IMG/VR virus record: IMGVR_UViG_3300046522_000316
Coordinates: 64,001 to 128,000 of that record
DNA from: a virus
Lineage: Duplodnaviria > Caudoviricetes
Length of the DNA: 64,000 nucleotides
Direction: 5' to 3' (one strand)
This document shows, piece after piece, positions 24,570 to 58,724 of this stretch (positions are counted from its first letter, which is position 1; the number at the start of each line of letters is the position of its first letter). The position numbers and the translations under genes are program-made. Below the pieces are notes generated by a model. That model was not told where the DNA came from. It did not search any database and saw only the letters and a program-made list of their open reading frames with translations.

Positions 24570-25205
24570 ATGGCCCGTAAGCGTAAAGCAAAACCGAAGC
24601 CGATCAAGATTGAATTGCCTGTGCCAACGAAGAAACGTATTCGCGTAATGGGCGAAGACATGGGCACAAAGAATTACGCCGTAACGCAAATCGAAGCGTG
24701 GGTGAAAGAGGAAGACGGCAAACGCCGCATGTGCTTTAAAATCATCGGTACAAAGATGATGGAACACATGATTCACGACGTAAAGATTGCACAGCTTGAA
24801 TGCCGTGCGTTTGTCGATGAATACAACCAATTGCCAGCCGTTGATTACATTGCAGCCGAACGCTTTCAGGCCCGGCCCGGTCGCGGTGCTGGAACCACGG
24901 TTGAAGCCATTTCCATGATGCTTGGCGTAATGATGATCCTGCGCCCGGATATTCCAACCGAGTTCTATACGGCTGCAACGTGGAAGAACGAATTCAATCG
25001 GACGCCTGCCGATTTGAAAGAGATGTACGAAGACCTGAAAGTGAAATACAAAGGCAAAGGAATCGTGATTCACCAACTGGATTCGTTCCTTATCGCGCTT
25101 TATCACGCAGCGAAACTATTGCGTGTTCCGGCCTATGATTTCATTCATTCGCATACCGACGAAGAACGACTTTTCAATGTCCTTTCCAAAGCCCCAACCC
25201 TTTAA
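24570..25205 (+). CDS. ruvC: RuvC-like Holliday junction resolvase
   Basis: RNase H-fold motifs MGEDMGTKNYA, IAAERFQ and HQLDS. Confidence 0.8.
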   Translation: MARKRKAKPKPIKIELPVPTKKRIRVMGEDMGTKNYAVTQIEAWVKEEDGKRRMCFKIIGTKMMEHMIHDVKIAQLECRAFVDEYNQLPAVDYIAAERFQARPGRGAGTTVEAISMMLGVMMILRPDIPTEFYTAATWKNEFNRTPADLKEMYEDLKVKYKGKGIVIHQLDSFLIALYHAAKLLRVPAYDFIHSHTDEERLFNVLSKAPTL

Positions 25206-28748: not shown

Positions 28749-29915
28749 GTGTTTAAGGATATTGCGAGCCGTATAAAAAAGGAAAGACGGTCAGTGCATA
28801 TCGAATCGCACTTAGGCCAAGTCTATGCGCAGATAATGGATAGCAACATTATCACGCCGAATGGTCGCGGGCCGGAATACCGCCCGTCCTCCTTTCCAAT
28901 TTGTCCAATCCTCGTTCACATGCAGTTTTTGCAAGCGGCGGAAAACGGATTCTATCAATCGAACATGACAGCAGGCGGCGGGTATTTCACAACCGTCGGA
29001 ACTGCTGCGCACGAAAACATTCAGTATTACATGGGGCAGACACGGAAAGTTTTCGGTGATTGGAAATGCCGGAACAGCAAGTGTCAGAAGCACCACGACG
29101 CCCGCGATCTTTACGACGAAAAAGGCGTGATGTACCGCAAAGGGAAGCTGACGACAAAAAACACCACGAACAACCTGTGCCCGGATTGCGGCATCGCTTG
29201 TGAGTATGTGGAAAAATGCATTGATTACTTCGGCCTGAAAGGTCACATCGACTGCATTTATGAAATGCCCGATGGCACGTACTGGGTTCTCGACTACAAG
29301 ACGACCACCAAAGGTCTGATGGAAGGGAACAAACTTCCGAAGCGTGAACACTTGATGCAGGTTCCGACGTACTGCTACGTGTTGGAAAAGAAATACAAAA
29401 TGAAAATCTCCGGATTCTCATTGCTGTACCTCAGTCGCGACAACCCGTATCAGTTCAAAGAGAAAGCCGAACGCTGGGGCGAGCGCCGTCGCAACGAAAC
29501 GAAAAAACTGATCATCCAGCAGAAGAAAATCTACCGGTCTGCTGTGAACAGTTTTATTCAGAACAAACCGGAACTCGCGATCAAGTGCAAACCGTGCAAA
29601 GCGCCAGACGATTACGAACGTTTGATGCCTGCGTATGAGGCGTGCCCGATGGAAAAGGTCTGCTTTAATAAACGCAGCCTGACCGACAACATGCTGCACG
29701 CACTGCAACCGGAAAAACTGATCAAAGTTCTGAACATCACCAACAACATGGAAAACTATGTTGAGCCTGAAGTGCTGTCGGTGCTGAAGAAACTTTGCGA
29801 CAAGCCGAAGAAATTGAAAAAGAAATCTAGCGCGTCTGACACCGACCTCAAACTGCCGTCGGCCAAGGCGAAAAAGAAAAAGCCTTCTAAACCTTTGAGG
29901 TTGACCAAGAAATGA
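28749..29915 (+). CDS. Cas4/RecB-like PD-(D/E)xK exonuclease with probable Fe-S cysteines
   Basis: GHID...VLDYKT...Q..TY; N-terminal CP and C-terminal CxxC...C...C. Confidence 0.8.
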   Translation: MFKDIASRIKKERRSVHIESHLGQVYAQIMDSNIITPNGRGPEYRPSSFPICPILVHMQFLQAAENGFYQSNMTAGGGYFTTVGTAAHENIQYYMGQTRKVFGDWKCRNSKCQKHHDARDLYDEKGVMYRKGKLTTKNTTNNLCPDCGIACEYVEKCIDYFGLKGHIDCIYEMPDGTYWVLDYKTTTKGLMEGNKLPKREHLMQVPTYCYVLEKKYKMKISGFSLLYLSRDNPYQFKEKAERWGERRRNETKKLIIQQKKIYRSAVNSFIQNKPELAIKCKPCKAPDDYERLMPAYEACPMEKVCFNKRSLTDNMLHALQPEKLIKVLNITNNMENYVEPEVLSVLKKLCDKPKKLKKKSSASDTDLKLPSAKAKKKKPSKPLRLTKK

Positions 29916-30619
29916 AAATCACCATTAGCGTGAAACCGAAAGTGGTTGCGACCGCTGGCACGTACAGCGCACCCGATATGGGCGCCGCCGAACAGATGCA
30001 ATACTCTGACGAAGAACTGGCCGAGCGTGACCGCGAAGAAAAAGCGCGTGAGGAAGTAGCGGCGGAAGAGGAACGGAAAAAAGCTGCCGAGAAACAGAAA
30101 AAAGACGCAGCAAAAGCTCCGCAAACTCCGAAAGAATCTGGCGAGTCCGGCACCGATGGCGACAAATCGGATGATGATTCTGAAGAGGAAGAGGACGAAG
30201 AATCTGACGACGATGATTCTGAAGACGATGATTCTGAAGACGACGACTCCGAAGAAAGCGACGATGACGACTCCGAGGATGATGATTCCGAAGAGGAAGA
30301 GGACGACGATGACGACGGCGACGAAGAGGCCACCGCAGCGAGCAAGCTGCCTTATCCGGAAGCACAAACGAATCGTAAAGTTCCTGATTTGATTCCGGCA
30401 GAAACAGCGGAAAAAGTCGTTGATCCTGAAGTGCAAAAGGAACAGGACGAAATCCGCGAAAGTGAAGCAGCGAAAAGCCGTCCGCTTTCCAAAGACGATC
30501 CGAACAACAAAGCGGCACAAGGTAAAAAGCTGGATAAAGACAACGGGAATACTTTGGTTGCTACGGCATCCTCGGAATTCGGCCTGCCTTATCCAGATGT
30601 GAAGATGCGCAATCGTTAA
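29912..30619 (+). CDS. Highly acidic, low-complexity protein
   Basis: Central DDDSE(E/D) repeats. Confidence 0.75.
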   Translation: MKITISVKPKVVATAGTYSAPDMGAAEQMQYSDEELAERDREEKAREEVAAEEERKKAAEKQKKDAAKAPQTPKESGESGTDGDKSDDDSEEEEDEESDDDDSEDDDSEDDDSEESDDDDSEDDDSEEEEDDDDDGDEEATAASKLPYPEAQTNRKVPDLIPAETAEKVVDPEVQKEQDEIRESEAAKSRPLSKDDPNNKAAQGKKLDKDNGNTLVATASSEFGLPYPDVKMRNR

Positions 30620-32292: not shown

Positions 32293-34398
32293 ATGGCTGA
32301 AAAGAAAGTGAAACCCAAGGCGAAGGCTGATCCAGCCGTCGAAGGGAAAAAGCTCAAGAAAACGAAAGTCGCTGAAGGCGTGGAAAAAACCACCAAAAAG
32401 AAATCAGCATCGCAGGAAGATTTCACGATCCACGAAGGGCTGGCCGGTATCCGTGCGAAACCTTCCATGTACCTTGGCGAGCAAGGCGCACCGATGGCGT
32501 ACCGCTGCCTGAAAGAAGGCGTGGATAACTGCTACGACGAACACATTGCCGGTCGCAACAAAGTAATCGAAGTTATTCTGGATTACGACACCGGTTGTTA
32601 CATCGTGGCCGACCAAGCGGGCGGCATTCCTACCGATTTCATGAAGCTGAAATCTGGTGAGAAAATTTCGATCATGACTGCCGCGTATACCAAAACGCAC
32701 GCAGGCGCAAAATTCAACGACAAGGCCTACAAAACTTCGGCAGGTACTCACGGTATCGGTATGTCCGCAGTTAACGCCGTGTCTGAGCGCATGCGTGTGT
32801 GGACAACGTACAACGGCAAGCTGGCGACACAAACGTACAGCAAAGGCGAAATCGTTCCGGGGCCGAAAAAAGATTTGCATCCGTACATCGTCAAGGCGGT
32901 GGACAAGGATGTAATGGGCCACCTGAAAGACAAGCTGCAAAAATACGGAACGATTGTCGCAATCGAACTGGATCAGACCGTCGTTTCTATCAACGCGAAA
33001 GCCGGTAAACTTCCGAAGACTTTCGAAGCGGCAGAACCGAACGCAACTGAAGTTGGCGTGTGGCTGAACAACGTCGCGATGCTCAACCCCGGTCTGGAAA
33101 TTCGTTTCTCCACGATCCGCAAGGGCAAGCGCAAAGACGAACTTTTCCTGAACAAAAAGGATTTGGCGTTCGTACCGAAAAACATGTGCGAATTGCGCGA
33201 CCTCACACCGCAGGGCAAGACGTTCATTTTCAAAAGCGACAACATCACTTGCGCGCTGGTTTGGTCTGACCACACCGACGCCGATAACTTCCTGACATTC
33301 GTGAACACTTCGCCAACCGTAGACGGTGGCTGGCACGTAACGGGTTTCACCGCTGCACTTTCCAAAGCCGTGAAAAAACACGTGCCGGAAAAGAAACCAG
33401 CGAAAGGAAAAGGCAAGTCGCAAGGTTACACCGGTTCCGACCTGCTGATCGGCCTGACGGGCATGTTCGACTGGCGTATGCACGGCGCTGCGTACACGTC
33501 GCAGGTAAAAGACAAACTCAGTTCGAAAGTGGACAAAGAAGTCGAAGACATTATGTTCCCGGCTTTCGATAAATACTTCACGGATAACCCGAAGGTCGCG
33601 AAAGACATTATCAAGCGCGCCTTGATCATGAACAAAGGCCGTGAAGAATTGGCCGCTGTCGTGAAATCCATGGCCGACGTGAAGAAACAAGGCAAGGGCA
33701 CACTGCCTGTCAAACTCGCACAGTCGCCACACTGCAAAGCGTGGGAACGTGAATTGTTTGTGGTGGAAGGGGATTCTGCAAAAGGCCCATCGGTTGACGC
33801 CCGCGACACGCACTATCAGGAAGTTTTGGCAGCTGGTGGTAAACCACTCAACGCCCTGAAAGCACCGATTGCGAAAATCATCACGCACAAAGATATTTCG
33901 GCATTCCTGATTGCCATCGGCGTTGATTTGAAATCGCTTGACCCGAAAGCAGAACGCCCGAAACTCAGCACCGAAAAATTGCGGATCAAATCCGTTCTGT
34001 TGCTGGTTGACCCTGACCCGGACGGCGGTCACATTGCGGTTCTTTATCTGGCCGTGATTTATCGTTTGCTTCCGGATCTGTTCAAAGAAGGCCGCGTGTT
34101 CTGCGTACAGGCGCCGCTTTATGCCGCGCTGGATTCGAAAGGTGCGCTTTACGGTGGTATGACCCACGCCGAGTGCCGTGGTGCTGCGCCGAAATCTGTA
34201 AAGGATCAGGACATTGTGCGTATCAAAGGTTGGGGGGAAGTTGGCCCGGAATATATCGGCCCGATTGCTTTCGATCCAAAATATCGCAAGCTGATTCAAA
34301 TCAACCCGTTCGCATCTGCTGCTGATGAACAGTGGTTCCGCGCCGTGGTTTCTGAAGACGCTGTGAACCGCCGTAAACTTCTCGGCCTTGAGGATTAA
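32293..34398 (+). CDS. gyrB: Type IIA topoisomerase B subunit (GyrB/ParE-like)
   Basis: GHKL ATPase motifs EGVDN and GTHGIGMSAVNA; TOPRIM VEGDSA and DPDPDGGHI. Confidence 0.93.
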   Translation: MAEKKVKPKAKADPAVEGKKLKKTKVAEGVEKTTKKKSASQEDFTIHEGLAGIRAKPSMYLGEQGAPMAYRCLKEGVDNCYDEHIAGRNKVIEVILDYDTGCYIVADQAGGIPTDFMKLKSGEKISIMTAAYTKTHAGAKFNDKAYKTSAGTHGIGMSAVNAVSERMRVWTTYNGKLATQTYSKGEIVPGPKKDLHPYIVKAVDKDVMGHLKDKLQKYGTIVAIELDQTVVSINAKAGKLPKTFEAAEPNATEVGVWLNNVAMLNPGLEIRFSTIRKGKRKDELFLNKKDLAFVPKNMCELRDLTPQGKTFIFKSDNITCALVWSDHTDADNFLTFVNTSPTVDGGWHVTGFTAALSKAVKKHVPEKKPAKGKGKSQGYTGSDLLIGLTGMFDWRMHGAAYTSQVKDKLSSKVDKEVEDIMFPAFDKYFTDNPKVAKDIIKRALIMNKGREELAAVVKSMADVKKQGKGTLPVKLAQSPHCKAWERELFVVEGDSAKGPSVDARDTHYQEVLAAGGKPLNALKAPIAKIITHKDISAFLIAIGVDLKSLDPKAERPKLSTEKLRIKSVLLLVDPDPDGGHIAVLYLAVIYRLLPDLFKEGRVFCVQAPLYAALDSKGALYGGMTHAECRGAAPKSVKDQDIVRIKGWGEVGPEYIGPIAFDPKYRKLIQINPFASAADEQWFRAVVSEDAVNRRKLLGLED

Positions 34399-34704: not shown

Positions 34705-36297
34705 ATGGCAAAGGTGAAAACGAAAGAAGTAGCGAAGGTTAAAAAATCTTCGCTCACGAAAATGAGCAAGACGGAAGTAGCGAAATCGCCGGTGATTAAA
34801 TTCGTCACCGTCGCACGCGAAACCAAAATGCAAACCATCAACGAATTTTCTGATGGCGCCCTGCATATCTACGGTTCCTACGTGGTGGAAGATCGGGCCG
34901 TTCCCGACTTCCGCGATGGTCTGAAACCAGTTCACCGCGCCGTGTTGTGGGCACTCGATGGCCTCGGCCTGCATCACCACAAAGGTTTCAAGAAATCGGC
35001 GCGTACAGTCGGTGACGCAATCGGTAAATATCACCCGCACGGTGACAGCGCTTGTTATGGCGCAATGGTGACGATTGCAAATAGCAACCCGCCGCTGGTG
35101 TGGGGCCAAGGTGGCTGGGGCAAACCGGATGGCACGACCGCATCCGCATATCGTTACACCGAAGCGAAGAAATCGAAATTTGCTGATACCTTTTTGCTCG
35201 ATCAGCAATATCTGAAAGTTGTTCCGATGGAAAACAACTTTTCGAACGATGAAAAACTTCCGCTGTATCTGCCTGCGCTGCTGCCTACGCTTTTGTTCCT
35301 CACATCGACGCCGCCCCCGGCCTACGGTGTGAAAGTCGGCAACCCTGCGTTCTCGGTCGCCACGGTTTCGAAAGTCGTGGTCGATATGCTCAACGGCAAA
35401 ACGTACACCGCGAAGAAATTGGCGGAAACGTTGAAAATTGTTCACCCGTTCGGCTGCATCGACGTTTCGTCTGACGCGGCAATCGAAGACCTCATGGCGA
35501 CCGGTAAAGGTTCCGTGCAGTACATGCCGCTGATTGATTACGATATCGAAAAGCGCATCATTCGAATTCGTTCGTTCTGTCCGGGCACGCTGACCGGCGA
35601 AGAGGGTTTGGACAAAGCTCTGCAAAAGCTGGCGAATATCGACGGCGTGAAAAACGCGTCGAATACTTCCGGCAAAAAGAACAAACACGCTGGCCCATAC
35701 GGCGCGCATCTGGAAGTAGCTTGTCCGAAAAACATGGACGAAGAATCTTTCGATGAAGTATGCGCGAAAGTAGACAAAGCGGTGAAAAGTTCCGTCGCTT
35801 ATCGACTGGGTATCACGATCCGGAAATCCGGTGAAGAAACCAACCGCTTCAAATACGTGAACTACGTCGAATATTTCACGGCGTGGATCAAGTACCGGGT
35901 CAAGCTCGAAGAACGCCTGATCGACTTCCTGCTGGCGAAGGCTGCGCGTGAATTGCACTTGAACGAAGTGTATTTGTACGCGGTGCAGAATCGTGAAAAA
36001 TTGCTGAAAGCGTTGCCGAAAGTTCTGGCGTCGAAAACCCCGGCTGAAGTGCTGGCGAAGACTCTGAAAATGCCGGTGCCTGATGCGGAAATCATCCTTG
36101 AACGGAAAGTGCGCCAATTGGCAGCGCTGGAAGAATCCGATCTGAAGGCCAAGATCAAAAACATCAAGGGCGAAATCAAGGATTTGAAATCCGACCAGAA
36201 AGAACCGGGCAAGCGTGCTGCGCGTGACACAACCGAGCGCGTGAAAAACTACCTGAAGAAACCTGACCCGACTGTTTCGGGCATCAAGGTTGAGTGA
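34705..36297 (+). CDS. gyrA: Type IIA topoisomerase A subunit (GyrA/ParC-like) lacking the C-terminal pinwheel
   Basis: RAVPDFRDGLKPVHR, YHPHGD and catalytic RYTE. Confidence 0.93.
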   Translation: MAKVKTKEVAKVKKSSLTKMSKTEVAKSPVIKFVTVARETKMQTINEFSDGALHIYGSYVVEDRAVPDFRDGLKPVHRAVLWALDGLGLHHHKGFKKSARTVGDAIGKYHPHGDSACYGAMVTIANSNPPLVWGQGGWGKPDGTTASAYRYTEAKKSKFADTFLLDQQYLKVVPMENNFSNDEKLPLYLPALLPTLLFLTSTPPPAYGVKVGNPAFSVATVSKVVVDMLNGKTYTAKKLAETLKIVHPFGCIDVSSDAAIEDLMATGKGSVQYMPLIDYDIEKRIIRIRSFCPGTLTGEEGLDKALQKLANIDGVKNASNTSGKKNKHAGPYGAHLEVACPKNMDEESFDEVCAKVDKAVKSSVAYRLGITIRKSGEETNRFKYVNYVEYFTAWIKYRVKLEERLIDFLLAKAARELHLNEVYLYAVQNREKLLKALPKVLASKTPAEVLAKTLKMPVPDAEIILERKVRQLAALEESDLKAKIKNIKGEIKDLKSDQKEPGKRAARDTTERVKNYLKKPDPTVSGIKVE

Positions 36298-40614: not shown

Positions 40615-42531
40615 TTGGAAATGACTATTCTTAAAGGCCAGACCGTAAACGTTAACCACGGCAAGAAAGGCGTATTCAAAGAGACGGTGAAAATCGTCCT
40701 GAAGAACGGCACCGTTCGCACCGAGGAAGGTTCCGAGTTCAACACCGCCGACATGTACAACAAAGGCAAAGGCAAATTCGTTGACCTGAAAGGCGGCGTC
40801 GTGAAGAAAACCGCCGCTGCTGCCGCTGCCCCAGCTGCAAAAGCTGAACGCCCTGCACCGCCGACCATCACTTTCAAAGAACTGGAAGAGAAAGCGCGCA
40901 AAATCAACGGCATCGAAATCGAAAGCCTGAAGCGCAAAGACGGCATTGTCATTCTGGCCGATGGTTCGTCGGTTGCAATCGGTGACATTTCCCGCAAGGG
41001 CAAAGGTTACGGCGCTGACGTTGTGACCCCTGCGCCGAAAGCTGGCAAGAAACCTGCCGCTGTTAAAGCTGCGACCGAAAAAGCCCCGGTGAAAACTTCC
41101 GGCGTTAAGCCAGCTGCAAAAACTGCTGCCCCGGCAAAAACTGGCGGCGCAGTGAAGAAAGTAAAAGCGGCCCCGGCTGACGAAAACGCATTTGACGAAG
41201 GCGCGCTGTATGGCCCGGCTGGTCAATACGAAACTTCCGACGTTCGCGGCAAGACCATCGACTTCAACGGCGACGACGTGAAAGTGGTTAAAACCTTTTC
41301 GTCCGGTCGTTGCGTTCTGGAAAACGGCGAAGAATTCCAAGCCGACGAAATCCGCAAACGTCACGATGGCCGTTTCTGCGTGTATTCCGATGAATACATC
41401 GACGAACTGAAAGAACTGCACGAACAAGCCAACACCCGTGCGAAGGCAATTCAAAAGGCCAAAGACACGCCGAAGCCTGTAACGTCGCGCAGCTTCAAAA
41501 AGAACGTGACTCAAGTTCTGGTCGGCAAGAAAATGCAAATTGTTGAACGTATCCTGACCACTGGCGTAATCGTCATGGATTCCGGGTTGCGTATTGCAAT
41601 TGCTGACGTTGAACAGCAAGGCGCAAAACTGGTTTACGTCGGTGCTGCATCGACCAACCAGAAAGCCGGTGGCGCATTGCCGAAAACCCGCGAAGTTCCG
41701 CCGTTCGAGAAAAAGATCGTTCGCGTTTCTGAATTCGACGACGACACCGCGCAAGACATTTGCGATTTGCTCGAAGAAAACGTGCGCAAAATCATGGCGG
41801 GCGAATATGACGTTCAACTGGTTTCGTCGTTCGCCGGTCGCGGCACCGAATTCTGCACCGTTGCATTCAGCTTCGCGATTGCCGACGCTGACCCGGCGCG
41901 CATTCAGGAAATGGTTGCACGTCAACGCGCTGAAAACTTCGCGGACGACGAAGGCAGCGACCTCGACCCGCACCAGCTGACTCCGAACGCCGACGACATT
42001 CCTGAAGAGGAAGAGGAAGAGCAGGAAGAGGAAGAAGAACAGGAAGAAGAGGAAGAGCAGGAAGAGGAAGAAGAACAGGAAGAAGAGGAAGAGCAGGAGG
42101 AAGAAGAGGAACAGGAAGAAGAGGAAGAGCAGGAGGAAGAGGAAGAGGAACAAGAAGAATTGGAAGAGGAAGAGCAAGCCGACTTCCCTGAAAACCAAAC
42201 CTTCGCCGCTGCCGAAACTTCTTTCCCTATCGACACCTCGGAACTGGTCGGTGACGCTTCGGCCCGTATGGCGAAAATCGTTCCTACTGCCAAGTATCAA
42301 GGCGCAATGCGCAAAGCCGCTGCTGCGTGGTACGAATCGCAAGATGCGTACACCAATTTCGGTTATGCCATTGAACCGGGTTCGACTATCGAAGACGCAG
42401 GTCAAACCTACCTGTTCATCGGCCTGCGCGGCGATGCGGTCGGCCTGATCAACGTTGCGAGTGAAACCGTTCGTTCGGTGGACTTCGAAAAATTCGTTGA
42501 GATTTGCGAAGCCAACGGCATCGAAATCTAA
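40615..42531 (+). CDS. Multidomain protein with internal ~35-aa repeats, a K/A-rich linker and an (EEEEEQ)n tract
   Basis: 638-aa ORF; repeats visible in the translation. Confidence 0.85.
   Translation: MEMTILKGQTVNVNHGKKGVFKETVKIVLKNGTVRTEEGSEFNTADMYNKGKGKFVDLKGGVVKKTAAAAAAPAAKAERPAPPTITFKELEEKARKINGIEIESLKRKDGIVILADGSSVAIGDISRKGKGYGADVVTPAPKAGKKPAAVKAATEKAPVKTSGVKPAAKTAAPAKTGGAVKKVKAAPADENAFDEGALYGPAGQYETSDVRGKTIDFNGDDVKVVKTFSSGRCVLENGEEFQADEIRKRHDGRFCVYSDEYIDELKELHEQANTRAKAIQKAKDTPKPVTSRSFKKNVTQVLVGKKMQIVERILTTGVIVMDSGLRIAIADVEQQGAKLVYVGAASTNQKAGGALPKTREVPPFEKKIVRVSEFDDDTAQDICDLLEENVRKIMAGEYDVQLVSSFAGRGTEFCTVAFSFAIADADPARIQEMVARQRAENFADDEGSDLDPHQLTPNADDIPEEEEEEQEEEEEQEEEEEQEEEEEQEEEEEQEEEEEQEEEEEQEEEEEEQEELEEEEQADFPENQTFAAAETSFPIDTSELVGDASARMAKIVPTAKYQGAMRKAAAAWYESQDAYTNFGYAIEPGSTIEDAGQTYLFIGLRGDAVGLINVASETVRSVDFEKFVEICEANGIEI
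42004..42175 (+). repeat. Coding tandem repeat of about 18 bp (EEEEEQ, about 8 units)
   Basis: GARGARGARGARGARCAG units. Confidence 0.9.
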
Positions 42532-42598: not shown

Positions 42599-43735
42599 AT
42601 GAACGAATTTTTCAGCCGCTTGGTAGGATCTGCACACGTTGCAATCGCTGCCTTTTATCAGAGCCTGTTTTCGCAAGCTCTCAGTACCTCCGCCGATGAA
42701 TTGGCAGACTGGTACAAACTCGATCCGACCGAAGTCGATCTGGAAGACGGCGCAGAAATTTACGCCAAACGTATTTCGCTGCCGATTTGGGATTTGGTGA
42801 ATCCTGATCATGCGGCGGAAATTGCCAGTGACATGATGCTGGAACTCGAAGCCAAGCACGATATGCATTTGTGCAGTTACACCGGCGACGGCGAATTCAT
42901 CGTTTACATCACCAACGAAGAAATCGAACTCGACGCTTTGCGTTTGGCTTTCGACGACCTCGAAGAACTGGAAGAGGAAGAGGAAGAACTCGAAGAACTC
43001 GACGGTTCCGAACTTCAGCAACAACCGGAAAGCGGTCGCGTTCTTTCCATGGTTCCGCGCATCGACCAATCGGCCCCGGCCCATGCTGCGCCAGCCGTTG
43101 AAATCGAAGCGGATTTCCCCGAGGAAGATTTCCCCGAGGAACCGTTGATCGAAGAACCGGCCCCGGTCGCCGCTGTAGCCGCGCCAGCCGAGATTGCAGA
43201 CGCCGATCTGGTAGAGGAAGAACCTTTGCCCGAGGAAACGCCTGTAAACGAAGCACAGGCCGTTGCAGCGCCAACCGAAACCAACGCGCAAGCCGAAGCA
43301 CTGGCGAACGCATTGAATGGCGAACCAGCACAGGCCGTTGAACAGCCCGCGCCAGCACCAGCAGAAACCGAAGCCTCGGCACCGGTTGCAGAAGCCGCAC
43401 CAATCGACGACGTTGTTGATACCGGCCCGGTAAAAGAATCGCCGGAAATCATCGCGGCAATTCACGCGGAAAAAATGCAGCAACTGATGGGCATGTTGCC
43501 GTCTGACACCATGTCTGAAGTTGATGACAATACCGGCGTGCTGTCCCTGATGTACAGTCGTGACGTGAACGGCGAAAATGTGGATTACATCCGCAACATT
43601 CGCCTTGTAAATGAAAACTTCCAAAACATTCGTTATGTGGACGTTTTCTATGTCGAAGACGAAGCGGGTAAAGTGCTGCACCGCACGTCGAGCGTACAGA
43701 GCATTATCCAGCACTTGGATCATCTGAACGCGTAA
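42599..43735 (+). CDS. Acidic, Ala/Pro/Glu-rich protein
   Basis: 378-aa ORF with a central low-complexity region. Confidence 0.8.
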   Translation: MNEFFSRLVGSAHVAIAAFYQSLFSQALSTSADELADWYKLDPTEVDLEDGAEIYAKRISLPIWDLVNPDHAAEIASDMMLELEAKHDMHLCSYTGDGEFIVYITNEEIELDALRLAFDDLEELEEEEEELEELDGSELQQQPESGRVLSMVPRIDQSAPAHAAPAVEIEADFPEEDFPEEPLIEEPAPVAAVAAPAEIADADLVEEEPLPEETPVNEAQAVAAPTETNAQAEALANALNGEPAQAVEQPAPAPAETEASAPVAEAAPIDDVVDTGPVKESPEIIAAIHAEKMQQLMGMLPSDTMSEVDDNTGVLSLMYSRDVNGENVDYIRNIRLVNENFQNIRYVDVFYVEDEAGKVLHRTSSVQSIIQHLDHLNA

Positions 43736-46793: not shown

Positions 46794-47351
46794 ATGGCAA
46801 AGCCAGAAAAAACCGTTAAAGCAAAAGCACGCACCAAAGTTTCCCGTCTCGACAAAGCCCTGCGCAAGCTGACCGGCACCAGCGCCAAAACCCCGTTCAG
46901 CATGAAATCCGGCGTGTTCACCGTGACCGGCTTCAGCGTTGTTCCTGCCGAAGTTCCGGGCTACCTGATCGACCGCACCGCGACCCACACCATCTATCGC
47001 CACAAGGCCACCAGCGCCTCGAAGAAAATGGTTGTGTCCGTGTTCGCAAACTCCGACGTTCTGCAACTGCTGGGCGGCAAGGAAGGCGGTAGCGTTACCG
47101 TTCGCCGTCGTTCCGCTTTCACCAGCGCAACCGGCACCCTGAAATTCGACGGCACTTCGGTTATCGTTACCGACACTGACGGCGGTGTTGCCGTGTTCGA
47201 TCTGGCCGCTGGCGATTACGAAATCAAAGCAGCCGATACCGAAGGTTCGCAAACTTCCGGTCGTGGCGTGAAATCGTCTTCCGACGAAGGCAAGAAGAAA
47301 AAGAAAGTCGTCGATATCAAAGAAGGCGGCAAGAAAAAAGCAAAAAAGTAA
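46794..47351 (+). CDS. Basic protein with a poly-Lys tail
   Basis: Strong codon bias; ends GKKKKKVVDIKEGGKKKAKK. Confidence 0.8.
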   Translation: MAKPEKTVKAKARTKVSRLDKALRKLTGTSAKTPFSMKSGVFTVTGFSVVPAEVPGYLIDRTATHTIYRHKATSASKKMVVSVFANSDVLQLLGGKEGGSVTVRRRSAFTSATGTLKFDGTSVIVTDTDGGVAVFDLAAGDYEIKAADTEGSQTSGRGVKSSSDEGKKKKKVVDIKEGGKKKAKK

Positions 47352-47409
47352 CTAACACCCGGTACATGGGCGACCTCGACTGAGCGCGCCCGTGACCACC
47401 TCGCAGTAA

Positions 47410-47455
47410 ACTGTAAATACACTGTACAAGATGTGCAGTGCAGAAAACTGTAAAT
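47410..47455 (+). promoter_or_regulatory. Tandem ACTGTAAAT motifs upstream of the poly-Glu gene
   Basis: Exact copies at 47410 and 47447, plus an ACTGTACAA variant at 47421. Confidence 0.7.
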
Positions 47456-47494
47456 CTCTTTCAGCAACATCAATCAATATATCTGGAGTTATTC

Positions 47495-48001
47495 ATGGCT
47501 AAGCCAGCACCAAAGAAATCCGCCGCCAAATCCAAGCCAGCCCCGAAGAAAGCCGGCAAGAAAAAATCGGCTCCGGAAATCACCGCTGACGATCTGAACC
47601 TGATCAACATGGATGTGCTGTCGCAAATCCTGATCGCGTTCCAAGACAAAGGCTTCGAAACCATCGAAGACGTGATCGGCGCCGTGCAGCAACTGATCGA
47701 AAGCGAAGAGGAAGAGGAAGAAGAGGAAGAAGAGGAAGAAGAGGAAGAGGAAGAAGAGGAAGAGGAAGAGGAAGAGGAAGAGGAAGAAGAGGAAGAGGAA
47801 GAGGAAGAAGAGGAAGAGGAAGAGGAAGAGGAAGAAGAGGAAGAGGAAGAAGAGGAAGAGGAAGAGGAAGAGGAAGAGGAAGAAGAGGAAGAGGAAGAAG
47901 AGGAAGAAGAGGAAGAGGAAGAGGAAGAGGAAGAGGAAGAGGAAGAGGAAGAGGAAGAGGAAGAGGAAGAGGAAGAAGAGGAAGAGGAAGACGACGAATA
48001 A
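47495..48001 (+). CDS. Bipolar protein with a basic N-terminus and a 95-residue poly-Glu tract
   Basis: ATG at 47495 after a GGAG RBS; MAKPAPKK...IES-E95-DDE. Confidence 0.85.
   Translation: MAKPAPKKSAAKSKPAPKKAGKKKSAPEITADDLNLINMDVLSQILIAFQDKGFETIEDVIGAVQQLIESEEEEEEEEEEEEEEEEEEEEEEEEEEEEEEEEEEEEEEEEEEEEEEEEEEEEEEEEEEEEEEEEEEEEEEEEEEEEEEEEEEEEEEEEEEEEEEEDDE
47705..47989 (+). repeat. 285-bp pure-purine (GAA/GAG)n tract
   Basis: 95 consecutive GAR codons. Confidence 0.95.
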
Positions 48002-48065
48002 TCGTCTCTGATCTTCTGATCTGAACCGCTTCGAAATTCTCCGACTTCTTTCGATCTGAGAATTC

Positions 48066-48098
48066 AAGAAACCCGGTAAAATCGCCGGGTTTCTTTTC
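48066..48098 (+). terminator. Rho-independent terminator
   Basis: AAGAAACCCGG...CCGGGTTTCTTTT. Confidence 0.85.
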
Positions 48099-48141
48099 GC
48101 CTAAAATCGGCATTCTGAAAATTTAAGGGAACACGAACATC

Positions 48142-48747
48142 ATGGCTAAGAACGATCTGACCATTAACGGCAAATCCGAAATCGGTCGTCTGCGCAAGCA
48201 GCAGCGCGCTCTGGAACAATCCAGCAAAGCGCAAGAAAAAGCACTGGAAGTAACCAACGGCCAAGCAACCGAAGTTGCTGAGCAAATCGCTACCCTCGAA
48301 GCTCAACTGAGCGGCGAGCCGGTCAAAGCTGCCAAAGGCGGCAAGAAAGCCAAGGGCGACGACAAGCCAGCCAAAGGCGGCAAGAAAGCCAAGGCCGAAG
48401 AAAAGCCTGCCAAGAAATCCAAAAAAGACGCCGAAGAAAAACCGGCCAAAGGCGGCAAGAAAGCCAAAGCTGAAGACGTGAAGCCTGCCAAGAAGTCGAA
48501 GAAAGCTGACAAGGAAGACGCGGCCCCGGCCAAGAAATCCAAGAAAGCCGACAAAGACGAAGCTCCGGCCAAGAAGTCCAAAAAGGCTTCGAAAGAAGTA
48601 GAAGCGCCGAAGAAAAAGAAAAAATCCAAGGACGTTGAAACCGACGCTCCGAAGAAAAAGAAAAAGTCGAAAGACGCTGACGCCAAGAAAGTGAAAAAAG
48701 GCGACAAGAAAAAGAAATCCAAAGACTTCGACGAATTCGAAGACTAA
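48142..48747 (+). CDS. Lys-rich histone-like protein
   Basis: N-terminal coiled coil, then AKGGKKAK (3 copies) and PAKKSKK/PKKKKK repeats. Confidence 0.8.
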   Translation: MAKNDLTINGKSEIGRLRKQQRALEQSSKAQEKALEVTNGQATEVAEQIATLEAQLSGEPVKAAKGGKKAKGDDKPAKGGKKAKAEEKPAKKSKKDAEEKPAKGGKKAKAEDVKPAKKSKKADKEDAAPAKKSKKADKDEAPAKKSKKASKEVEAPKKKKKSKDVETDAPKKKKKSKDADAKKVKKGDKKKKSKDFDEFED

Positions 48748-48775: not shown

Positions 48776-48795
48776 GGGGGCCATTGGCCCCTTTT
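48776..48795 (+). terminator. Rho-independent terminator
   Basis: GGGGCC-ATT-GGCCCC-TTTT. Confidence 0.75.
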
Positions 48796-49767: not shown

Positions 49768-50422
49768 CCATTTTAATTGTGGCTGCGTAGTGGTCGGGGA
49801 TATCCCTTCAATCACACGGTGCGAAGAGCATGGCGGTTGCATTGTCGCCTTCCACAATCAGAATGTGCCTGCACGCCGCTGGAGTAATGAGGCACAAGAC
49901 CTCAACGTGTGGCAGGGAACACTGCTGCACAATCTCCGCAAAATCAAAGACGAATGTTTTTCCTACATTTTCGCATACCCGGAACTCAACGCGCTCGGCC
50001 CCATGAATTTTCTACGGCCCGAAGCTTGGCGGAATGCGGATATGGAAATGATGCGCCACCTGAAACGCATTTTAAAACCGGGCGGCTACATTTCCTTTGT
50101 CGTTGATCCAAGCGTGCTGCATACAGTGACCTATCAAGTCAGCAAATTGAAAATGAAAATCGACGTGCGCGGTTGCATTCTTGATCGCTTCGACGCTTCC
50201 CCATCTTCGACGCTGGCCTACTCGGTCGCAGATGCCAAAGTGCATCTAATCGTGTACAACGAATATCGGGATAAAATCCCAAAATCGGGTAGCCGCATTC
50301 TGGATCTTAGCGGGCTGAAACTATCCTACGTTTTGAAACGGAAAAGGAAAAACAAATTACTGGTTCTAGCAGGACACCCGTACCACTTTGATAAAGTGAC
50401 GGCGCGTCTAGAGGACGCCTAA
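49733..50422 (+). CDS. DNA N6A/N4C methyltransferase-like protein, degenerate, with an N-terminal Cys/His cluster
   Basis: LRKIKDECFSYIFAYPE (cf. DPPY), RILKPGG and RILDLSG (cf. FxGxG). Confidence 0.6.
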   Translation: MKCMSHLDTMINHFNCGCVVVGDIPSITRCEEHGGCIVAFHNQNVPARRWSNEAQDLNVWQGTLLHNLRKIKDECFSYIFAYPELNALGPMNFLRPEAWRNADMEMMRHLKRILKPGGYISFVVDPSVLHTVTYQVSKLKMKIDVRGCILDRFDASPSSTLAYSVADAKVHLIVYNEYRDKIPKSGSRILDLSGLKLSYVLKRKRKNKLLVLAGHPYHFDKVTARLEDA

Positions 50423-51084
50423 TGGCAGTCAAGACGAAAAAGGTGAAGGTACAGTCGGTTAAGAAATCGAAAATCATCACCAAACCGAAAAAGACACAGG
50501 CCACACGCGAAGCAGAAAAGACCAAAGAGCGAAAGCGTAAATCGACAGCGGCCCCGGTGCGCTCTGCCGGTCGAATTAAAGTGGCGGGCATTCCGTACAA
50601 GCTGCGTAAGTTCGAAAACTTGGGCGCTCGCCCGATGCCCGAAACGTTCTTCACACGACAGGGCAAAAGTCTCAAGGATCTAATCCGAAATACGTTCCGC
50701 ATTTGCATCAACAATGCCGTGGACGTTGAGGCGCACCGTTACCAAAGCACCACGACGAAAGCCGGGCGCAAAGCCGTCAAAGGGATCATGTGGACGAATG
50801 ACCCGTTCCGCCCTGACCGCGTGCGTCGATACCACGAAACGTACATCGTGGGTCTGGATAAAAACGGCGAAAATAAACCACTGATGAAACACAAGCGGGT
50901 GCTTGTGCAATGCACGTGTGAAAACTACGTGTACTGGTGGGAATATGCGAACGCCCGTTGCGGTGCTGCGTACCTGATTTATTCCAACGGTGAACCGCCC
51001 GTGTGGACAAACCCCGGCATGTCGGTAGGCCTGTGCAAACATCTTGTGGCCCTGTCGAAAATTGTCATTGAAGAAAACCTCTGA
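50422..51084 (+). CDS. SWIM zinc-finger protein with a basic N-terminus
   Basis: VQCTCENY...GLCKHLVAL (CxCx(n)CxH). Confidence 0.8.
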   Translation: MAVKTKKVKVQSVKKSKIITKPKKTQATREAEKTKERKRKSTAAPVRSAGRIKVAGIPYKLRKFENLGARPMPETFFTRQGKSLKDLIRNTFRICINNAVDVEAHRYQSTTTKAGRKAVKGIMWTNDPFRPDRVRRYHETYIVGLDKNGENKPLMKHKRVLVQCTCENYVYWWEYANARCGAAYLIYSNGEPPVWTNPGMSVGLCKHLVALSKIVIEENL

Positions 51085-53921: not shown

Positions 53922-54935
53922 ATGTCTGCTGATAAAAATATGACCGGCGAACAAATTCAGCAGATTATGGATATGTTTCTGTACAAGGCACTCGAACCAC
54001 TTGTCCTGTACACGAATATTTTCGATCCGCAAGTTGAGTATCTGTTGCTGCTGGTAGCGACCAACCGTAAACGCAAGCTGAGTTCGTTGGATCGTGGTGA
54101 AGCCGTGGAAAAGCTCGCGGCCTATCTCAGTGTTCAGGATCGCAAGCAGAAATTCGAGTTCATTCGTGCGGCTCGCGTGGAAAGATTTTTCATCCACAAG
54201 TTTCTGATTTCGTTCACTGAACAAAACATGGGCTACGTGAAACGCTACAAGGAATTCTTGCTGAATCCTACCAAGGAAAAGAAGATTGCCCTTGACCGTG
54301 ACGCGGTGCTGATCGGGATGTGTGAGCGCTCGGCACTCTACAACACCCTGCAAATTTGCAACGCGTACCTGAAACGTTTTTACGTGTACCGAAATTCTGT
54401 CGTTGACCTGTACGTGAAGAACGCCAACAAGTGGGCGAAGGCTCACGTGATCGGTGCGCAAGGCCGGTCGAGTTTCAAAGACCTTGTGCAGTCGATTATC
54501 AAGGCTGTAATCACGGCGATGGATAAATACGACAGTCGAAAAGGTGCCTTAACTTCCTACGTCACGTTCTGGACAAAAAACGCGATGAAGGCGAGTAAAG
54601 AACACGAATATGGCGTGGCTTACACTGTGCCGCAAGCGCAGAAGAAAAAGCTTTTCGAGGGGACTAGCCACCACGTCAATTTCAGTGTGAGCCTCGACAC
54701 GATTTACGGCGACGATGACGACGAAGGTTCAAGCATGGCCCTGCATTCTGTTCTGGCGCCGGGCCACACGCTGGAAAAAGGAATCGAAGTCGAACAAAGT
54801 CGCTCGCTTGTGCAGATGCTTGCGAAAAAAGTAGATCCGATGGGCATCGCTCGGTTGAGTCTGGATATTGGCGAGCATTTTACGCCAGAAGAACAGGCAA
54901 TTATGCGCCAGCACATGCTCGAAGAAAAACTGTAA
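53922..54935 (+). CDS. Phage RNA polymerase sigma70-family factor (regions 2-3; region 4 apparently truncated)
   Basis: DLVQ...AMDKYDSRKG.LTSYVTFW.KN (region 2); VSLDTIYGDDD (region 3.2). Confidence 0.82.
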   Translation: MSADKNMTGEQIQQIMDMFLYKALEPLVLYTNIFDPQVEYLLLLVATNRKRKLSSLDRGEAVEKLAAYLSVQDRKQKFEFIRAARVERFFIHKFLISFTEQNMGYVKRYKEFLLNPTKEKKIALDRDAVLIGMCERSALYNTLQICNAYLKRFYVYRNSVVDLYVKNANKWAKAHVIGAQGRSSFKDLVQSIIKAVITAMDKYDSRKGALTSYVTFWTKNAMKASKEHEYGVAYTVPQAQKKKLFEGTSHHVNFSVSLDTIYGDDDDEGSSMALHSVLAPGHTLEKGIEVEQSRSLVQMLAKKVDPMGIARLSLDIGEHFTPEEQAIMRQHMLEEKL

Positions 54936-55846: not shown

Positions 55847-57097
55847 ATGGCGACCGCCGTTTTTAAAGGCATGGGCAGCATCCGCACCAACAGTGGCAAG
55901 GGTGATTCGCTCCGCTTGGACGAAGTTGTTGATATCATCCAGTGGCCGAAAAACAAATATTTCCTGTTCCGCATTTTGCCGATCATGCCGCTGCAAGTGC
56001 GTCAGGTCTGGATCAAACTGTGGGCCGGTGGCAAGGGCAAAGAAAAACGCGAAGTGAACATTCCGCGTTACGCTATCGACTTCGATCCGAACGATCCGGA
56101 AACCCCGAAAAAAGGCGTGAAGTGCCCGTACATGGCGCTGGCCGACAAGTTCAAAGGCCAGAAAGAAAAGCCGGTGCGTGCGTCCGACTTCTGGTTGTTC
56201 AACGTGATCGACCGCGACATGCAGGAAGAAGGCCCGCCGCGTAAAGCGTCGAAGCCAACCAAGGAAGAAAAGAATTCCGGTTTCAAGGATATCAATTCTG
56301 AAACTTGGACTCCGGTTCGCGTTGCGCGTCTGACCATGACTTCGATCAACCGACTGCAAGAACTGTCGGAAGAAAACAAAATCAAGTCGAAGAAATCCGG
56401 CAAAACCGCGCAGTACGACGTATCCGATGCGAAGTATGGTTTCGACACCAAACTGAAATTCAAACCGGACGCAGCGGGCACCGACAAATACACCATCGAC
56501 AAAGCGGACGGCCCTACCCCGCTGAGCGACGAAGAGCAAGGCTATCTGACGTGGAACCTCACTGAAGAACTTCTGGACGCCACCGGTCGCATGACCGAAA
56601 AGGCTGCGAAGGAAGACGTTAAGCGTATGGAAATCATCGGCGGCGAAGAACTCGACGATGATGACGAAGACGAAGACGAAAAGCCGAAGAAAAAGAAAGG
56701 CAAATCCACTTCGCTCGACGACGATGACGACGAAGACGAAAAGCCGAAGAAAAAGAAAAAGAAATCTTCCATCGACGATGACGATGATGAAGACGAAAAA
56801 CCGAAAAAGAAAAAGAAGTCCAAGTCCATCGACGACGATGACGACGAAGACGAAAAGCCGAAGAAAAAGAAAAAGTCTTCGGACAAAGACGCCAAGTCTT
56901 CCAAGGTGAAAAAGAAGTCGAAGTCGGACGACGATGACGACGAAAAGCCGAAGAAGAAAAAGAAGGCCAAGGAAGAAGAAGCTCCGAAGAAAAAGAAAAA
57001 ATCTTCGGACAAGGACGAGAAAGGCGGCGCCAAAAAGAAAGTGAAGAAAGACGCCAAGAAAGGCAGCGGCAAGAAAAAGAACGCGTGGGATGACTAA
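55847..57097 (+). CDS. Putative T4 gp32-like ssDNA-binding protein with an alternating acidic/basic tail
   Basis: FRILP...CPY...WLFNVIDR core; position directly upstream of recA. Confidence 0.55.
   Translation: MATAVFKGMGSIRTNSGKGDSLRLDEVVDIIQWPKNKYFLFRILPIMPLQVRQVWIKLWAGGKGKEKREVNIPRYAIDFDPNDPETPKKGVKCPYMALADKFKGQKEKPVRASDFWLFNVIDRDMQEEGPPRKASKPTKEEKNSGFKDINSETWTPVRVARLTMTSINRLQELSEENKIKSKKSGKTAQYDVSDAKYGFDTKLKFKPDAAGTDKYTIDKADGPTPLSDEEQGYLTWNLTEELLDATGRMTEKAAKEDVKRMEIIGGEELDDDDEDEDEKPKKKKGKSTSLDDDDDEDEKPKKKKKKSSIDDDDDEDEKPKKKKKSKSIDDDDDEDEKPKKKKKSSDKDAKSSKVKKKSKSDDDDDEKPKKKKKAKEEEAPKKKKKSSDKDEKGGAKKKVKKDAKKGSGKKKNAWDD
56655..56960 (+). repeat. Coding tandem repeat DDDDDEDEKPKKKK(K) (about 5 units)
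   Basis: GACGATGACGACGAAGACGAAAAGCCGAAGAAAAAG-like units; bounds approximate. Confidence 0.85.
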
Positions 57098-57164: not shown

Positions 57165-58724
57165 ATGGCAAAAACCGCCGTAAAGACCAAAAAGCTCGAC
57201 CTTTCCGAAAAGGTTCTGAAGACTTCCAAGTCGAAAGTTCCAGCCGTCGTTGAGAAAAAGACTTCCAAGTCGAAAGCTCCGGCAGTGAAAGGCTCTAAGA
57301 GCAAGGATGTAGCCGTCGCGGCCAAGCCCGACAAATTTGTCTTCAACCCTTACGCATCATTCGAAGACGAAATTGATAACATGGAAAAAAAGGTCGGTCT
57401 GACCTCCATGTCTGTCAACGAAAAAGAAGACCGGTTGGGAACAGGCAGTCTCTGTCTCGATCTGCAAATGGCCGGTGGCCTTCTGGCCGGTGGTTGGTAC
57501 ACCTTCTACGGTGCGGAACAGTCGTGTAAAACCACGCTCGCCACAACCGTGATGGGTTCCATTGTTCGCAAAGCATCTTTCCTCGGTAAAGCGTTTTTCT
57601 TCGACTACGAAGGTTCGTTCTCCGCTGAATATGCGAACGCGATGTGGAAATACAACGGCGGCGGAAGTGCCGGTACTGTTGAGCAAGTTTTCGGTCTGGC
57701 TGGGAAAGACGGCGACTGGATTATTCGCCCACGTATCCGCAACTATGCGCCAGCAGTTGGCGAAGACTTTTTCGATGCGTTGGCTAGCACACTGAAAAAG
57801 CTTCCGTCTGTTCTGAAACTCGATGGTGATTTCTTCTACATTTACGAAAACACCAAAGCGAATCAGAAGCTGTGCAAAGGTCATTACGACGTTAAATATT
57901 TCAAGAAGACCAACAAGTTCAAAGTCCCGGCGCCACACGGCTTGCCGCAGGCTGTGTTCCTTGTGGACTCTTACCCGGCAATGCTTTCGCGTCGTGCAGA
58001 CGATAGCGAAGAGGGTAAAGACGGTCTGGCCTCGCAAGCGCGTATGTTCTCTGACGGGATCAAACGTGTTAAAGGCCGCATGAAAGAAAAACGCGTTCTG
58101 GTTCTCGGCATCAACCAATTGCGTTCTGTTCCGATGGCGATGTACGGCCCGACCGAACAGGAACCTTGCGGCCAAGCGCTGAAGTATTTCTCTGACGCTC
58201 GTTTCCGTATGTCTCCGATTGCGATTCCGCACGCGAAAGGCATGATGGAAGAAGAGCCGTCGATTAGCGGCGTCGGTGTTGATACCTACCGTTACATCAA
58301 GTGCCACGCTTTCAAAAATAAACTCGGTGGCCCGCAAAAATCCAACATGATCATGCGTCTGTATGTGTCGAACGAAAACGGCGAAGGCCTCGGTTTCGAC
58401 CGCGTGTGGGATACGTGGATGTATCTGAAAGAAACTGGCCAAATTTCCGGCCAGCGCAACAAAATGAAATTCGCAGAAGGTACACCGTTCGCAGGTCACA
58501 CCCTGTCGTACATGGATCTGAAGAAATTGGTCGATGGCAAAAAAGAATTGATCAAATCTTGCTGCGAAAAAATGAAGGTCAAGCCGCTGCGTATTTACGA
58601 GTGGTGCCGCAAGCAAATCGAATCCGGCAAGGGTTACGATTTGTACCTTGATCAAATCAAAGCAACCCACACCAAAAAGGCAGCGAAAGCCGCAGCCAAA
58701 GGTGACGGAGAGGACGAAGAATGA
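57165..58724 (+). CDS. recA: RecA/UvsX-family recombinase with a Lys-rich N-terminal extension
   Basis: GAEQSCKTT (Walker A), FFDYEGS, VFLVDS (Walker B) and GINQLR. Confidence 0.92.
   Translation: MAKTAVKTKKLDLSEKVLKTSKSKVPAVVEKKTSKSKAPAVKGSKSKDVAVAAKPDKFVFNPYASFEDEIDNMEKKVGLTSMSVNEKEDRLGTGSLCLDLQMAGGLLAGGWYTFYGAEQSCKTTLATTVMGSIVRKASFLGKAFFFDYEGSFSAEYANAMWKYNGGGSAGTVEQVFGLAGKDGDWIIRPRIRNYAPAVGEDFFDALASTLKKLPSVLKLDGDFFYIYENTKANQKLCKGHYDVKYFKKTNKFKVPAPHGLPQAVFLVDSYPAMLSRRADDSEEGKDGLASQARMFSDGIKRVKGRMKEKRVLVLGINQLRSVPMAMYGPTEQEPCGQALKYFSDARFRMSPIAIPHAKGMMEEEPSISGVGVDTYRYIKCHAFKNKLGGPQKSNMIMRLYVSNENGEGLGFDRVWDTWMYLKETGQISGQRNKMKFAEGTPFAGHTLSYMDLKKLVDGKKELIKSCCEKMKVKPLRIYEWCRKQIESGKGYDLYLDQIKATHTKKAAKAAAKGDGEDEE

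Follow-up and report, generated by a model that had tools for sequence, protein, structure and literature searches.

A glutamate-tailed protein encoded between Lys-rich proteins in a Lu11/HRDY3-like jumbo Pseudomonas phage: a possible polyanionic partner of phage polycations

The 64,000-nucleotide stretch analysed here, hereafter the window, covers positions 64,001 to 128,000 of the IMG/VR virus record IMGVR_UViG_3300046522_000316 (Duplodnaviria; Caudoviricetes) and contains a gene whose product ends in a very long run of glutamates (the poly-Glu protein). The original prediction, made from the letters of the sequence, had described 95 consecutive glutamates behind about 70 residues with a basic N-terminus, and this was confirmed by translation of the open reading frame (ORF; 47495-48001, 168 aa). 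The gene and its signals are arranged as follows.

47495-48001, plus strand: coding sequence (CDS) of the poly-Glu protein, 168 aa, stop included
47495-47572, plus strand: Lys/Ala/Pro-rich N-terminal arm, residues 1-26, charge +10
47573-47701, plus strand: conserved, predicted helical module, residues 27-69, net charge about -7
47705-47989, plus strand: Glu95 tract, residues 71-165, a GAA/GAG microsatellite inside a 287-nt purine run
47990-47998, plus strand: C-terminal Asp-Asp-Glu tip (DDE, DDDE or ED ends recur among orthologues)
47408-47417, plus strand: promoter-like motif AAACTGTAAA, copy 1, with the core of the promoter annotated in phage Lu11
47445-47454, plus strand: promoter-like motif AAACTGTAAA, copy 2, about 40 nt before the start codon
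47485-47488, plus strand: Shine-Dalgarno sequence GGAG, 6 nt before the ATG
48066-48101, plus strand: intrinsic terminator with a 12-bp stem, a 6-nt loop and a U-run

Residues 1-26 include ten lysines and no acidic residue, and the segment that follows (27-69) is hydrophobic yet acidic. Seventy residues precede the 95 unbroken glutamates, which are encoded, as had been described, by an uninterrupted mixture of GAA and GAG codons (54 and 41, respectively) and are followed by DDE and the stop codon. When the tail was measured as the C-terminal stretch with at least 93% Asp/Glu, as was done for all twelve orthologues compared below, it comprised 100 residues in the window protein (97 Glu and 2 Asp). 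For any protein, about 100 acidic residues without a break are an extreme, and in a bacterial system they are especially unexpected, since Asp/Glu runs are known to destabilise translating ribosomes. From its composition, we infer that the tail is disordered.

At the DNA level the tract is a simple repeat, which Tandem Repeats Finder reported as a period-6 array of 49.8 copies. It is built only of GAA-GAG and GAA-GAA-GAG units (a GAAGAG/GAAGAAGAG microsatellite) in which GAG is never doubled, and GAG makes up 43% of its Glu codons versus 18% in ten other genes. The closest relative, the metagenomic contig L006, encodes an upstream protein that is 91% identical to that of the window, yet the pattern of its repeat units is wholly different. 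The mixed codons had been taken as a sign of selection on the protein; this argument fails, as the mixture is that of the repeat itself and differs completely between close relatives. Judged from these sequences, the pure-Glu tract is a fast-evolving microsatellite kept near one length.

The tract was also searched for in independent assemblies by comparing Logan contigs from four metagenome runs, belonging to four studies, over positions 47000-48700. In none of the runs does a contig cross the tract: the contigs break off at 47693 and set in again at 48003, and the flanks differ from the window by 0-21 letters. As short-read graphs fail to bridge the 287-nt purine run, the length check that accompanied the original prediction could be completed in part: the gene and both edges of the tract are independently seen, whereas the number 95 comes from the window assembly alone. 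In metagenome strains from two runs the Lys-rich arm is shortened in frame by 3 and 6 nt, at 47508 and 47550; this is as expected of a coding sequence, and the length of the arm is variable. Read one base off frame, the tract encodes poly(Lys/Arg), which in contig L007 gives an ATG-initiated ORF of 66 aa (L007:4908-5108). This alternative reading is probably a by-product of the repeat and is not conserved by the orthologues whose tails are coded by Asp/Glu mixtures.

The window region is collinear with Pseudomonas phage HRDY3 (314 kb), to which it is 71% identical at the nucleotide level, and shows 68% nucleotide identity to Pseudomonas phage Lu11 (281 kb). The jumbo myovirus group that holds the Lu11/HRDY3-type phages also contains PaBG, NCTB and the Erwinia/Dickeya phages Yoloswag, Y3, Alexandra, AD1 and JA11-33 (PMC7412058). 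Orthologues of the poly-Glu protein, all of them labelled hypothetical, were found in HRDY3 (XDJ15127), Lu11 (gp161, AFH14695) and PaBG (gp125, AGS82009), and eight more orthologue loci were located on IMG/VR contigs of up to 314 kb by using the upstream gene as an anchor. The HRDY3, Lu11 and PaBG proteins are true orthologues, as the Lys-rich arm, a homologous helical module and an acidic tail of about 100 residues recur in all of them, and their genes have the same flanking genes, promoter motif and terminator. A tblastn search against 50,697 phage records matched HRDY3 and Lu11 only (E = 7e-12 and 4e-6, respectively). With residues 1-72, a word-indexed search gave no match, and an exhaustive phmmer search with residues 1-73 against 1.84 billion representatives gave a single 80-aa fragment, P0008 (E = 1.7e-5). 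The PaBG protein carries a note 'similar to Utp1 assembly factor', which looks like a low-complexity artefact, given that the window orthologue matched no Pfam family and gp125 no PHROGs family.

The tails of the twelve orthologues measure 100, 114, 102, 101, 107, 60, 103, 97, 111, 86, 120 and 89 residues. The comparison with homologues in related phages, which had been suggested along with the original prediction, thus revealed an acidic tail of 86-120 residues in 11 of the 12. In nine of them the tail is pure Glu (56-110 Glu, the 56 being those of L007) and is encoded on purine runs of 164-326 nt, as in the window and HRDY3. In contrast, the tails of Lu11, PaBG and the metagenomic contig L014 are approximately half Asp and half Glu, use GAA and GAC codons, and contain no purine run longer than 14-17 nt. 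These three tails are non-repetitive and equal in length to the pure-Glu tails; not being simple repeats, they are unlikely to be assembly artefacts. As they encode an equally long tail with non-repetitive codons, selection acts on a polyanion of about 100 residues and not on homopurine DNA. A function at the DNA level (H-DNA or another property of the homopurine run) was therefore ruled out as the conserved feature, since Lu11, PaBG and L014 lack the purine run.

The same comparison bears on whether the tract has a selected function at all, or is a slippage-expanded or mis-assembled microsatellite that happens to end a small protein. Its period-6/9 repeat structure, the wholly different codon pattern in close relatives, the failure of short-read contigs to bridge it and the presence of only 56 Glu in one relative, L007, would all fit such an origin. 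We nevertheless regard it as very improbable, because tails of equal length arise from non-repetitive GAA/GAC mixtures in Lu11, PaBG and L014, no orthologue without a tail was found among the twelve compared, and acidic middle genes are present in all clades, including that of NCTB (see below). In all orthologues at least 49 non-acidic residues lie ahead of the tail. Asp/Glu runs have been found to abort translation chiefly if the ribosomal tunnel is not already filled by a preceding stretch of chain (bioRxiv 10.1101/2021.02.02.429294), and the placement of the tail agrees with this.

The duplicated motif promoters and the separate terminator of the original prediction were both recovered. The motif AAACTGTAAA, located at 47408 and 47445, occurs in 13 copies in the window versus 0.12 expected, and its core is shared with two sites in front of Lu11 gp161 that are annotated as 'putative middle/late promoter'; a doubled motif of this type also precedes the HRDY3 and Lu11 orthologues. 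The terminator hairpin at 48066-48101 (fold of -19.6 kcal/mol, z = -4.05) is followed by the U-run, and a comparable hairpin with a T-run was recognised by eye at the equivalent place in Lu11. The CTGGAGTT block, which holds the GGAG, shows no variation in the alignment of the three phages (window, HRDY3 and Lu11). A longer, GTG-initiated frame was unsupported, and the ATG at 47495, behind the GGAG of this invariant block, is the true start. Two promoter motifs, a conserved Shine-Dalgarno sequence and a terminator of its own would fit strong and separate expression. We take the gene to be real and to belong, probably as an abundantly expressed middle/late gene, to a jumbo Pseudomonas phage of the Lu11/HRDY3 kind. 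In public RNA runs, 4-7% of the sampled words were present, which speaks neither for nor against expression. Motifs of the AAACTGTAAA type also occur inside CDSs a little further upstream (at 45390, 45741 and 46406). A sigma-factor-like phage protein is encoded 6 kb downstream (53922-54935; Sigma70_r2, E = 3.6e-6) and is a candidate reader of AAACTGTAAA.

The N-terminal module is 34-76% identical across the aligned orthologues, with a ratio of non-synonymous to synonymous substitution rates (dN/dS) of 0.30-0.66, which indicates that it is under purifying selection; its comparison with PaBG gp125 by hhalign gave E = 2e-5. AlphaFold2, run on a ten-sequence alignment, predicted a disordered arm followed by helices at residues 31-36, 39-50 and 57-72, with a mean predicted local distance difference test score (pLDDT) of 73. 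Since residues 27-68 contain 8 Asp/Glu versus 1 Lys, DNA binding by the module is unlikely and a role in protein docking or oligomerisation is more plausible; on this composition, the module is more likely a docking or oligomerisation unit than a DNA binder. A homodimer prediction for residues 1-73 scored 0.20 and was counted neither for nor against oligomerisation.

No Pfam family was matched by the full protein at E ≤ 0.01 or by the N-terminal set at E ≤ 10, and PHROGs contained no family for the poly-Glu protein. Similarly, a profile search of the PDB gave nothing below E = 1.5, a feature search of the ESM Atlas gave no usable match, and Foldseek searches of the N-terminal model against the PDB and BFVD gave nothing significant. 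The best match of residues 1-73 in VIA-align was a weak one to the ribbon-helix-helix (RHH) protein NikR (Z = 3.5, root-mean-square deviation 2.0, 39 aligned residues), and several RHH antitoxins were matched weakly as well (Z = 2.4-2.8). The fold matches in the Atlas (NikR, NikA and Lsr2-type) all had template modelling (TM) scores below 0.5, and these values are too low to assign the module to the RHH fold. The module has no basic DNA-contacting surface of the RHH type, given its 8 Asp/Glu and 1 Lys at residues 27-68.

The poly-Glu gene is flanked on the same strand by genes for two Lys-rich proteins.

46794-47351, plus strand: upstream neighbour, 185-aa beta-rich protein with a Lys-rich C-terminal tail (phrog_22271, E = 1.8e-51)
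48142-48747, plus strand: downstream neighbour, 201-aa Lys-repeat, H1-like protein (phrog_36478, E = 3.9e-33)

The upstream product has a net charge of +18 and was modelled with low confidence (pLDDT 63) as a small beta-barrel with weak Hfq/Sm/SH3-like matches (Z = 5.4). The downstream product (net charge +28) consists of a conserved, coiled-coil-like N-terminal segment and KPAKK-type repeats interleaved with acidic residues, and ends in a (D/E)(F/Y)D(D/E)FE tip, which is DFDEFED in the window. The downstream gene itself lacks a AAACTGTAAA motif and sits between the poly-Glu terminator, from which it is separated by the 48102-48141 gap, and a strong GC hairpin terminator (48776-48792); judging from this arrangement, it may be expressed by read-through, below the level of the poly-Glu gene.

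The order phrog_22271, acidic protein, phrog_36478, on one strand, is found in HRDY3, Lu11 (gp160-162), PaBG (gp126-124), Yoloswag (gp321-323), NCTB and eight metagenomic contigs, and the flanking genes of PaBG and Yoloswag belong to the same PHROGs as those of the window. The three genes lie inside the replication block, near those for topoisomerase (topo) II, DNA polymerase, the clamp loader and RecA. In Yoloswag and NCTB the middle proteins are longer and, as read from their sequences, have several putative helical modules divided by shorter Asp/Glu tracts. Neither hhalign nor BLASTP found any similarity of the window module to Yoloswag gp322 or to the acidic protein of NCTB (phrog_30618). 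As the middle gene of these phages is acidic though not detectably homologous, it is the charge and not the sequence that is kept, and an acidic middle gene is retained in all clades, including NCTB. In NCTB (LT598654, a metagenome-derived marine phage) the locus, L029:1447-3457, encodes the phrog_22271 member, an acidic protein of 294 aa with four putative helical modules between Asp/Glu tracts, and a coiled-coil protein with APAKPARSRGKK repeats.

Lys-rich extensions of about 25-65 residues were also seen at the N- or C-terminus of other proteins encoded in the window, among them topo IIB, topo IIA, the clamp loader, RecA, a SWIM-type protein and a PD-(D/E)XK nuclease.

32293-34398, 34705-36297, 13976-15166 (minus strand), 15706-16947 (minus strand), 57165-58724, 50422-51084, 28749-29915 and 24570-25205: genes for proteins with Lys-rich extensions

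The Pfam domains start at residue 69 in topo IIB, 64 in topo IIA and 58 in the clamp loader, behind the Lys-rich extensions, and the Lu11 orthologues have the same extensions. A strict test of co-occurrence with acidic tracts was not clean, as Lys-rich GyrA extensions are also found in phages without Asp/Glu runs of at least 30 residues (NCTB and BcepSauron).

The gene, its architecture, a tail length and charge kept under different coding and the fixed three-gene place in the replication block are all seen directly, and from them we infer, with expression, tail disorder and every binding partner, a role as chaperone or competitor. We tentatively propose, by analogy, that the protein may be a prothymosin-alpha-like polyanionic partner of the phage Lys-rich proteins. 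It would consist of a disordered polyanion with a charge of about -100, carried on a small acidic helical module and a short Lys-rich arm, and would be the electrostatic counterpart of the H1-like neighbour, the Lys-tailed beta-barrel protein and the Lys-extended topo II, clamp loader and RecA. Much as prothymosin-alpha does with histone H1, the tail would form a disordered, high-affinity complex with their polycationic tails. In this complex the Lys-rich proteins would be held off host RNA, ribosomes and DNA, and competitive substitution would govern how they are loaded onto replicating phage DNA and taken off it again. Prothymosin-alpha and H1 bind each other very tightly although both partners are disordered, and prothymosin-alpha invades protein-DNA complexes and strips H1 off nucleosomes by competitive substitution (PMC7661507; bioRxiv 10.1101/2020.04.17.046243).

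The fixed place between two Lys-rich proteins throughout the group, together with the conserved tail of about 100 residues, fits a polyanionic partner. In the prothymosin-alpha/H1 pair, too, a strongly acidic protein without structure is matched with a Lys-rich DNA-binding partner of the H1 type, the pairing in the phage being one of gene adjacency. The long Asp/Glu-rich region without hydrophobic residues (95 Glu and DDE) is a trait of the prothymosin/nucleoplasmin type; however, neither the Pfam Prothymosin family nor the Nucleoplasmin core was matched by the full protein or by the N-terminal set at the thresholds given above, so that no sequence relation to prothymosin-alpha is seen. Furthermore, the window tail differs in being a homopolymer and in its roughly doubled charge, a folded module and a basic arm are present in addition, and the setting is bacterial and viral. 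In HMGB1-type proteins and in nucleoplasmin/SET the acidic tail contacts basic histone tails and auto-regulates DNA binding. The poly-Glu protein resembles them in joining a basic segment and a long Asp/Glu tail in one chain, but it has no HMG box or nucleoplasmin core, its tail is 3-5 times longer, and its module is acidic and not DNA-binding.

Several points weigh against a polyanionic partner. Adjacency by itself is weak evidence of binding, and the charges are not balanced one to one, with about -100 on the tail versus +28 and +18 on the neighbours, whose Lys repeats are moreover interleaved with acidic residues and therefore have a lower charge density. The exact Glu count rests on the window assembly, as short-read contigs break at both edges of the tract, and no paper on the poly-Glu family was found in the literature library searched. 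Finally, translating bacterial ribosomes become unstable on long stretches of Asp/Glu (bioRxiv 10.1101/2021.02.02.429294), which makes efficient full-length synthesis uncertain.

The acidic gene is kept beside H1-like polycations in phages infecting Pseudomonas, Erwinia and Dickeya and in the metagenome-derived NCTB, for which no host is recorded. By analogy, this conservation of length and charge suggests that these phages may handle their DNA or replication machinery with paired polyelectrolytes resembling prothymosin and H1; in the literature library searched, nothing of this kind was described for viruses of bacteria. Such a pair would be a simple model, provided by nature, of disordered complexes with high affinity and of how 'risky' acidic sequences are translated, and possibly also of compartmentalisation without a shell in jumbo phages.

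The Lys-rich extensions may also be read in another way, in which the polyanion, the Lys-rich proteins and DNA would coacervate into a membrane-less replication compartment, with the poly-Glu protein as its scaffold and the extensions as address tags of its clients. The occurrence of such extensions on the topo II subunits, the clamp loader, RecA and others in both the window and Lu11, the Lys arm of the same sort on the poly-Glu protein itself and the clustering of several more strongly charged proteins within 10 kb are consistent with a condensate, as is the joining of Lys-rich and polyacidic blocks in one ORF of a distant jumbo phage, Xanthomonas phage PhiXhv-15. We consider a scaffold of this kind rather improbable, since the case for it is wholly inferential, the Lys-rich tails could just bind DNA directly and the PhiXhv-15 fusion protein is not demonstrably homologous. 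An electrostatic addressing system, in which the Lys tags would target enzymes to a coacervate replication compartment, is doubtful to a similar degree; if true, it would be a second, shell-free route by which jumbo phages compartmentalise replication.

The PhiXhv-15 ORF (PV764602; L028:2070-3833, minus strand) is a single frame of 587 aa located about 3 kb from the topo II genes. It combines an H1-like part rich in Lys and Ala with KPAKGGKK repeats, a short coiled coil and over 100 Asp/Glu residues, and shows weak homology to the Lys-rich neighbour of the window (hhalign 46%). At its annotated end the frame reads poly(Arg-Gly); this is the GAA/GAG repeat again, translated in a different frame, probably owing to an indel in the record.

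A different target of the charge was considered in a DNA-mimic decoy, whose tail would imitate the phosphate backbone and titrate host nucleoid silencers, restriction enzymes, RecBCD or other defence nucleases. A charge of about -100 across about 100 residues and the retention of the tail by the phage group across different hosts speak for such a decoy. Xenogeneic silencers would be a plausible target, as the G+C content of the window (50.8%) is below that of typical Pseudomonas hosts. Ocr (T7 gp0.3) and ArdA are strongly acidic phage and plasmid proteins that compete with DNA for DNA-binding proteins; they have rigid folds with charges spaced like those of B-DNA, and Ocr is made immediately after infection. 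In contrast, the poly-Glu tail is predicted to be a floppy homopolymer without such a spaced charge pattern, and its gene belongs to the replication block, behind a motif labelled middle/late in Lu11, and not to the early genes. This place and the 'putative middle/late' motif are the only evidence against an immediate-early role, and they are weak. The protein showed no similarity to any Pfam or PADLOC-independent family, the Pfam models of Ocr and ArdA being unmatched, and neither protein was listed in the fold searches, which covered residues 1-73 only. As a decoy would also leave the invariable pairing with phage polycations unexplained, we hold this role to be unlikely.

The boundary between module and tail suggested yet another role, that of a head-internal or scaffold component whose acidic tail would be packaged into the prohead or cleaved in it. 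Acidic internal peptides are found in the head of T4, and a hydrophobic-x-Glu site lies right before the tail (LIE/S in the window, LQE/A in HRDY3 and MQE/K in Lu11), which we take to resemble the sites of T4-type prohead proteases. However, the gene is located among replication and not structural genes, and packing a polyanion beside DNA would be energetically unfavourable. In addition, PaBG gp124-126 are absent from the 14 identified virion bands (PMC7412058, Table 1), although this argument is weak, as acidic tails stain and digest poorly. A place in the head is thus hardly to be expected.

A link to polyphosphate was likewise considered. The gene at 42599-43735 is the orthologue of Lu11 gp155, a 'putative polyphosphate kinase', but no Pfam or PHROG match was obtained, the annotation is unsupported and the link was dropped.

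Other charged repeats are encoded by neighbouring genes, namely a Glu/Gln repeat with periods of 9/18/36, an Asp/Glu/Ser tract and a 57-nt Asp-Lys repeat.

42004-42178, 30173-30324 and 56652-56875: further charged repeat tracts

The 57-nt Asp-Lys repeat is part of the tail of a 416-aa protein (55847-57097) that resembles single-stranded DNA-binding proteins (SSB) and ends in NAWDD. The SSB tails of T4 gp32, T7 gp2.5 and E. coli SSB are acidic, often have an acidic/aromatic tip and recruit partners. The poly-Glu protein differs from these proteins in having no oligonucleotide-binding (OB) fold and a tail several times longer than the SSB tails known to us, whereas the DFDEFED tip of its downstream neighbour and the NAWDD end of the SSB-like protein are of this type.

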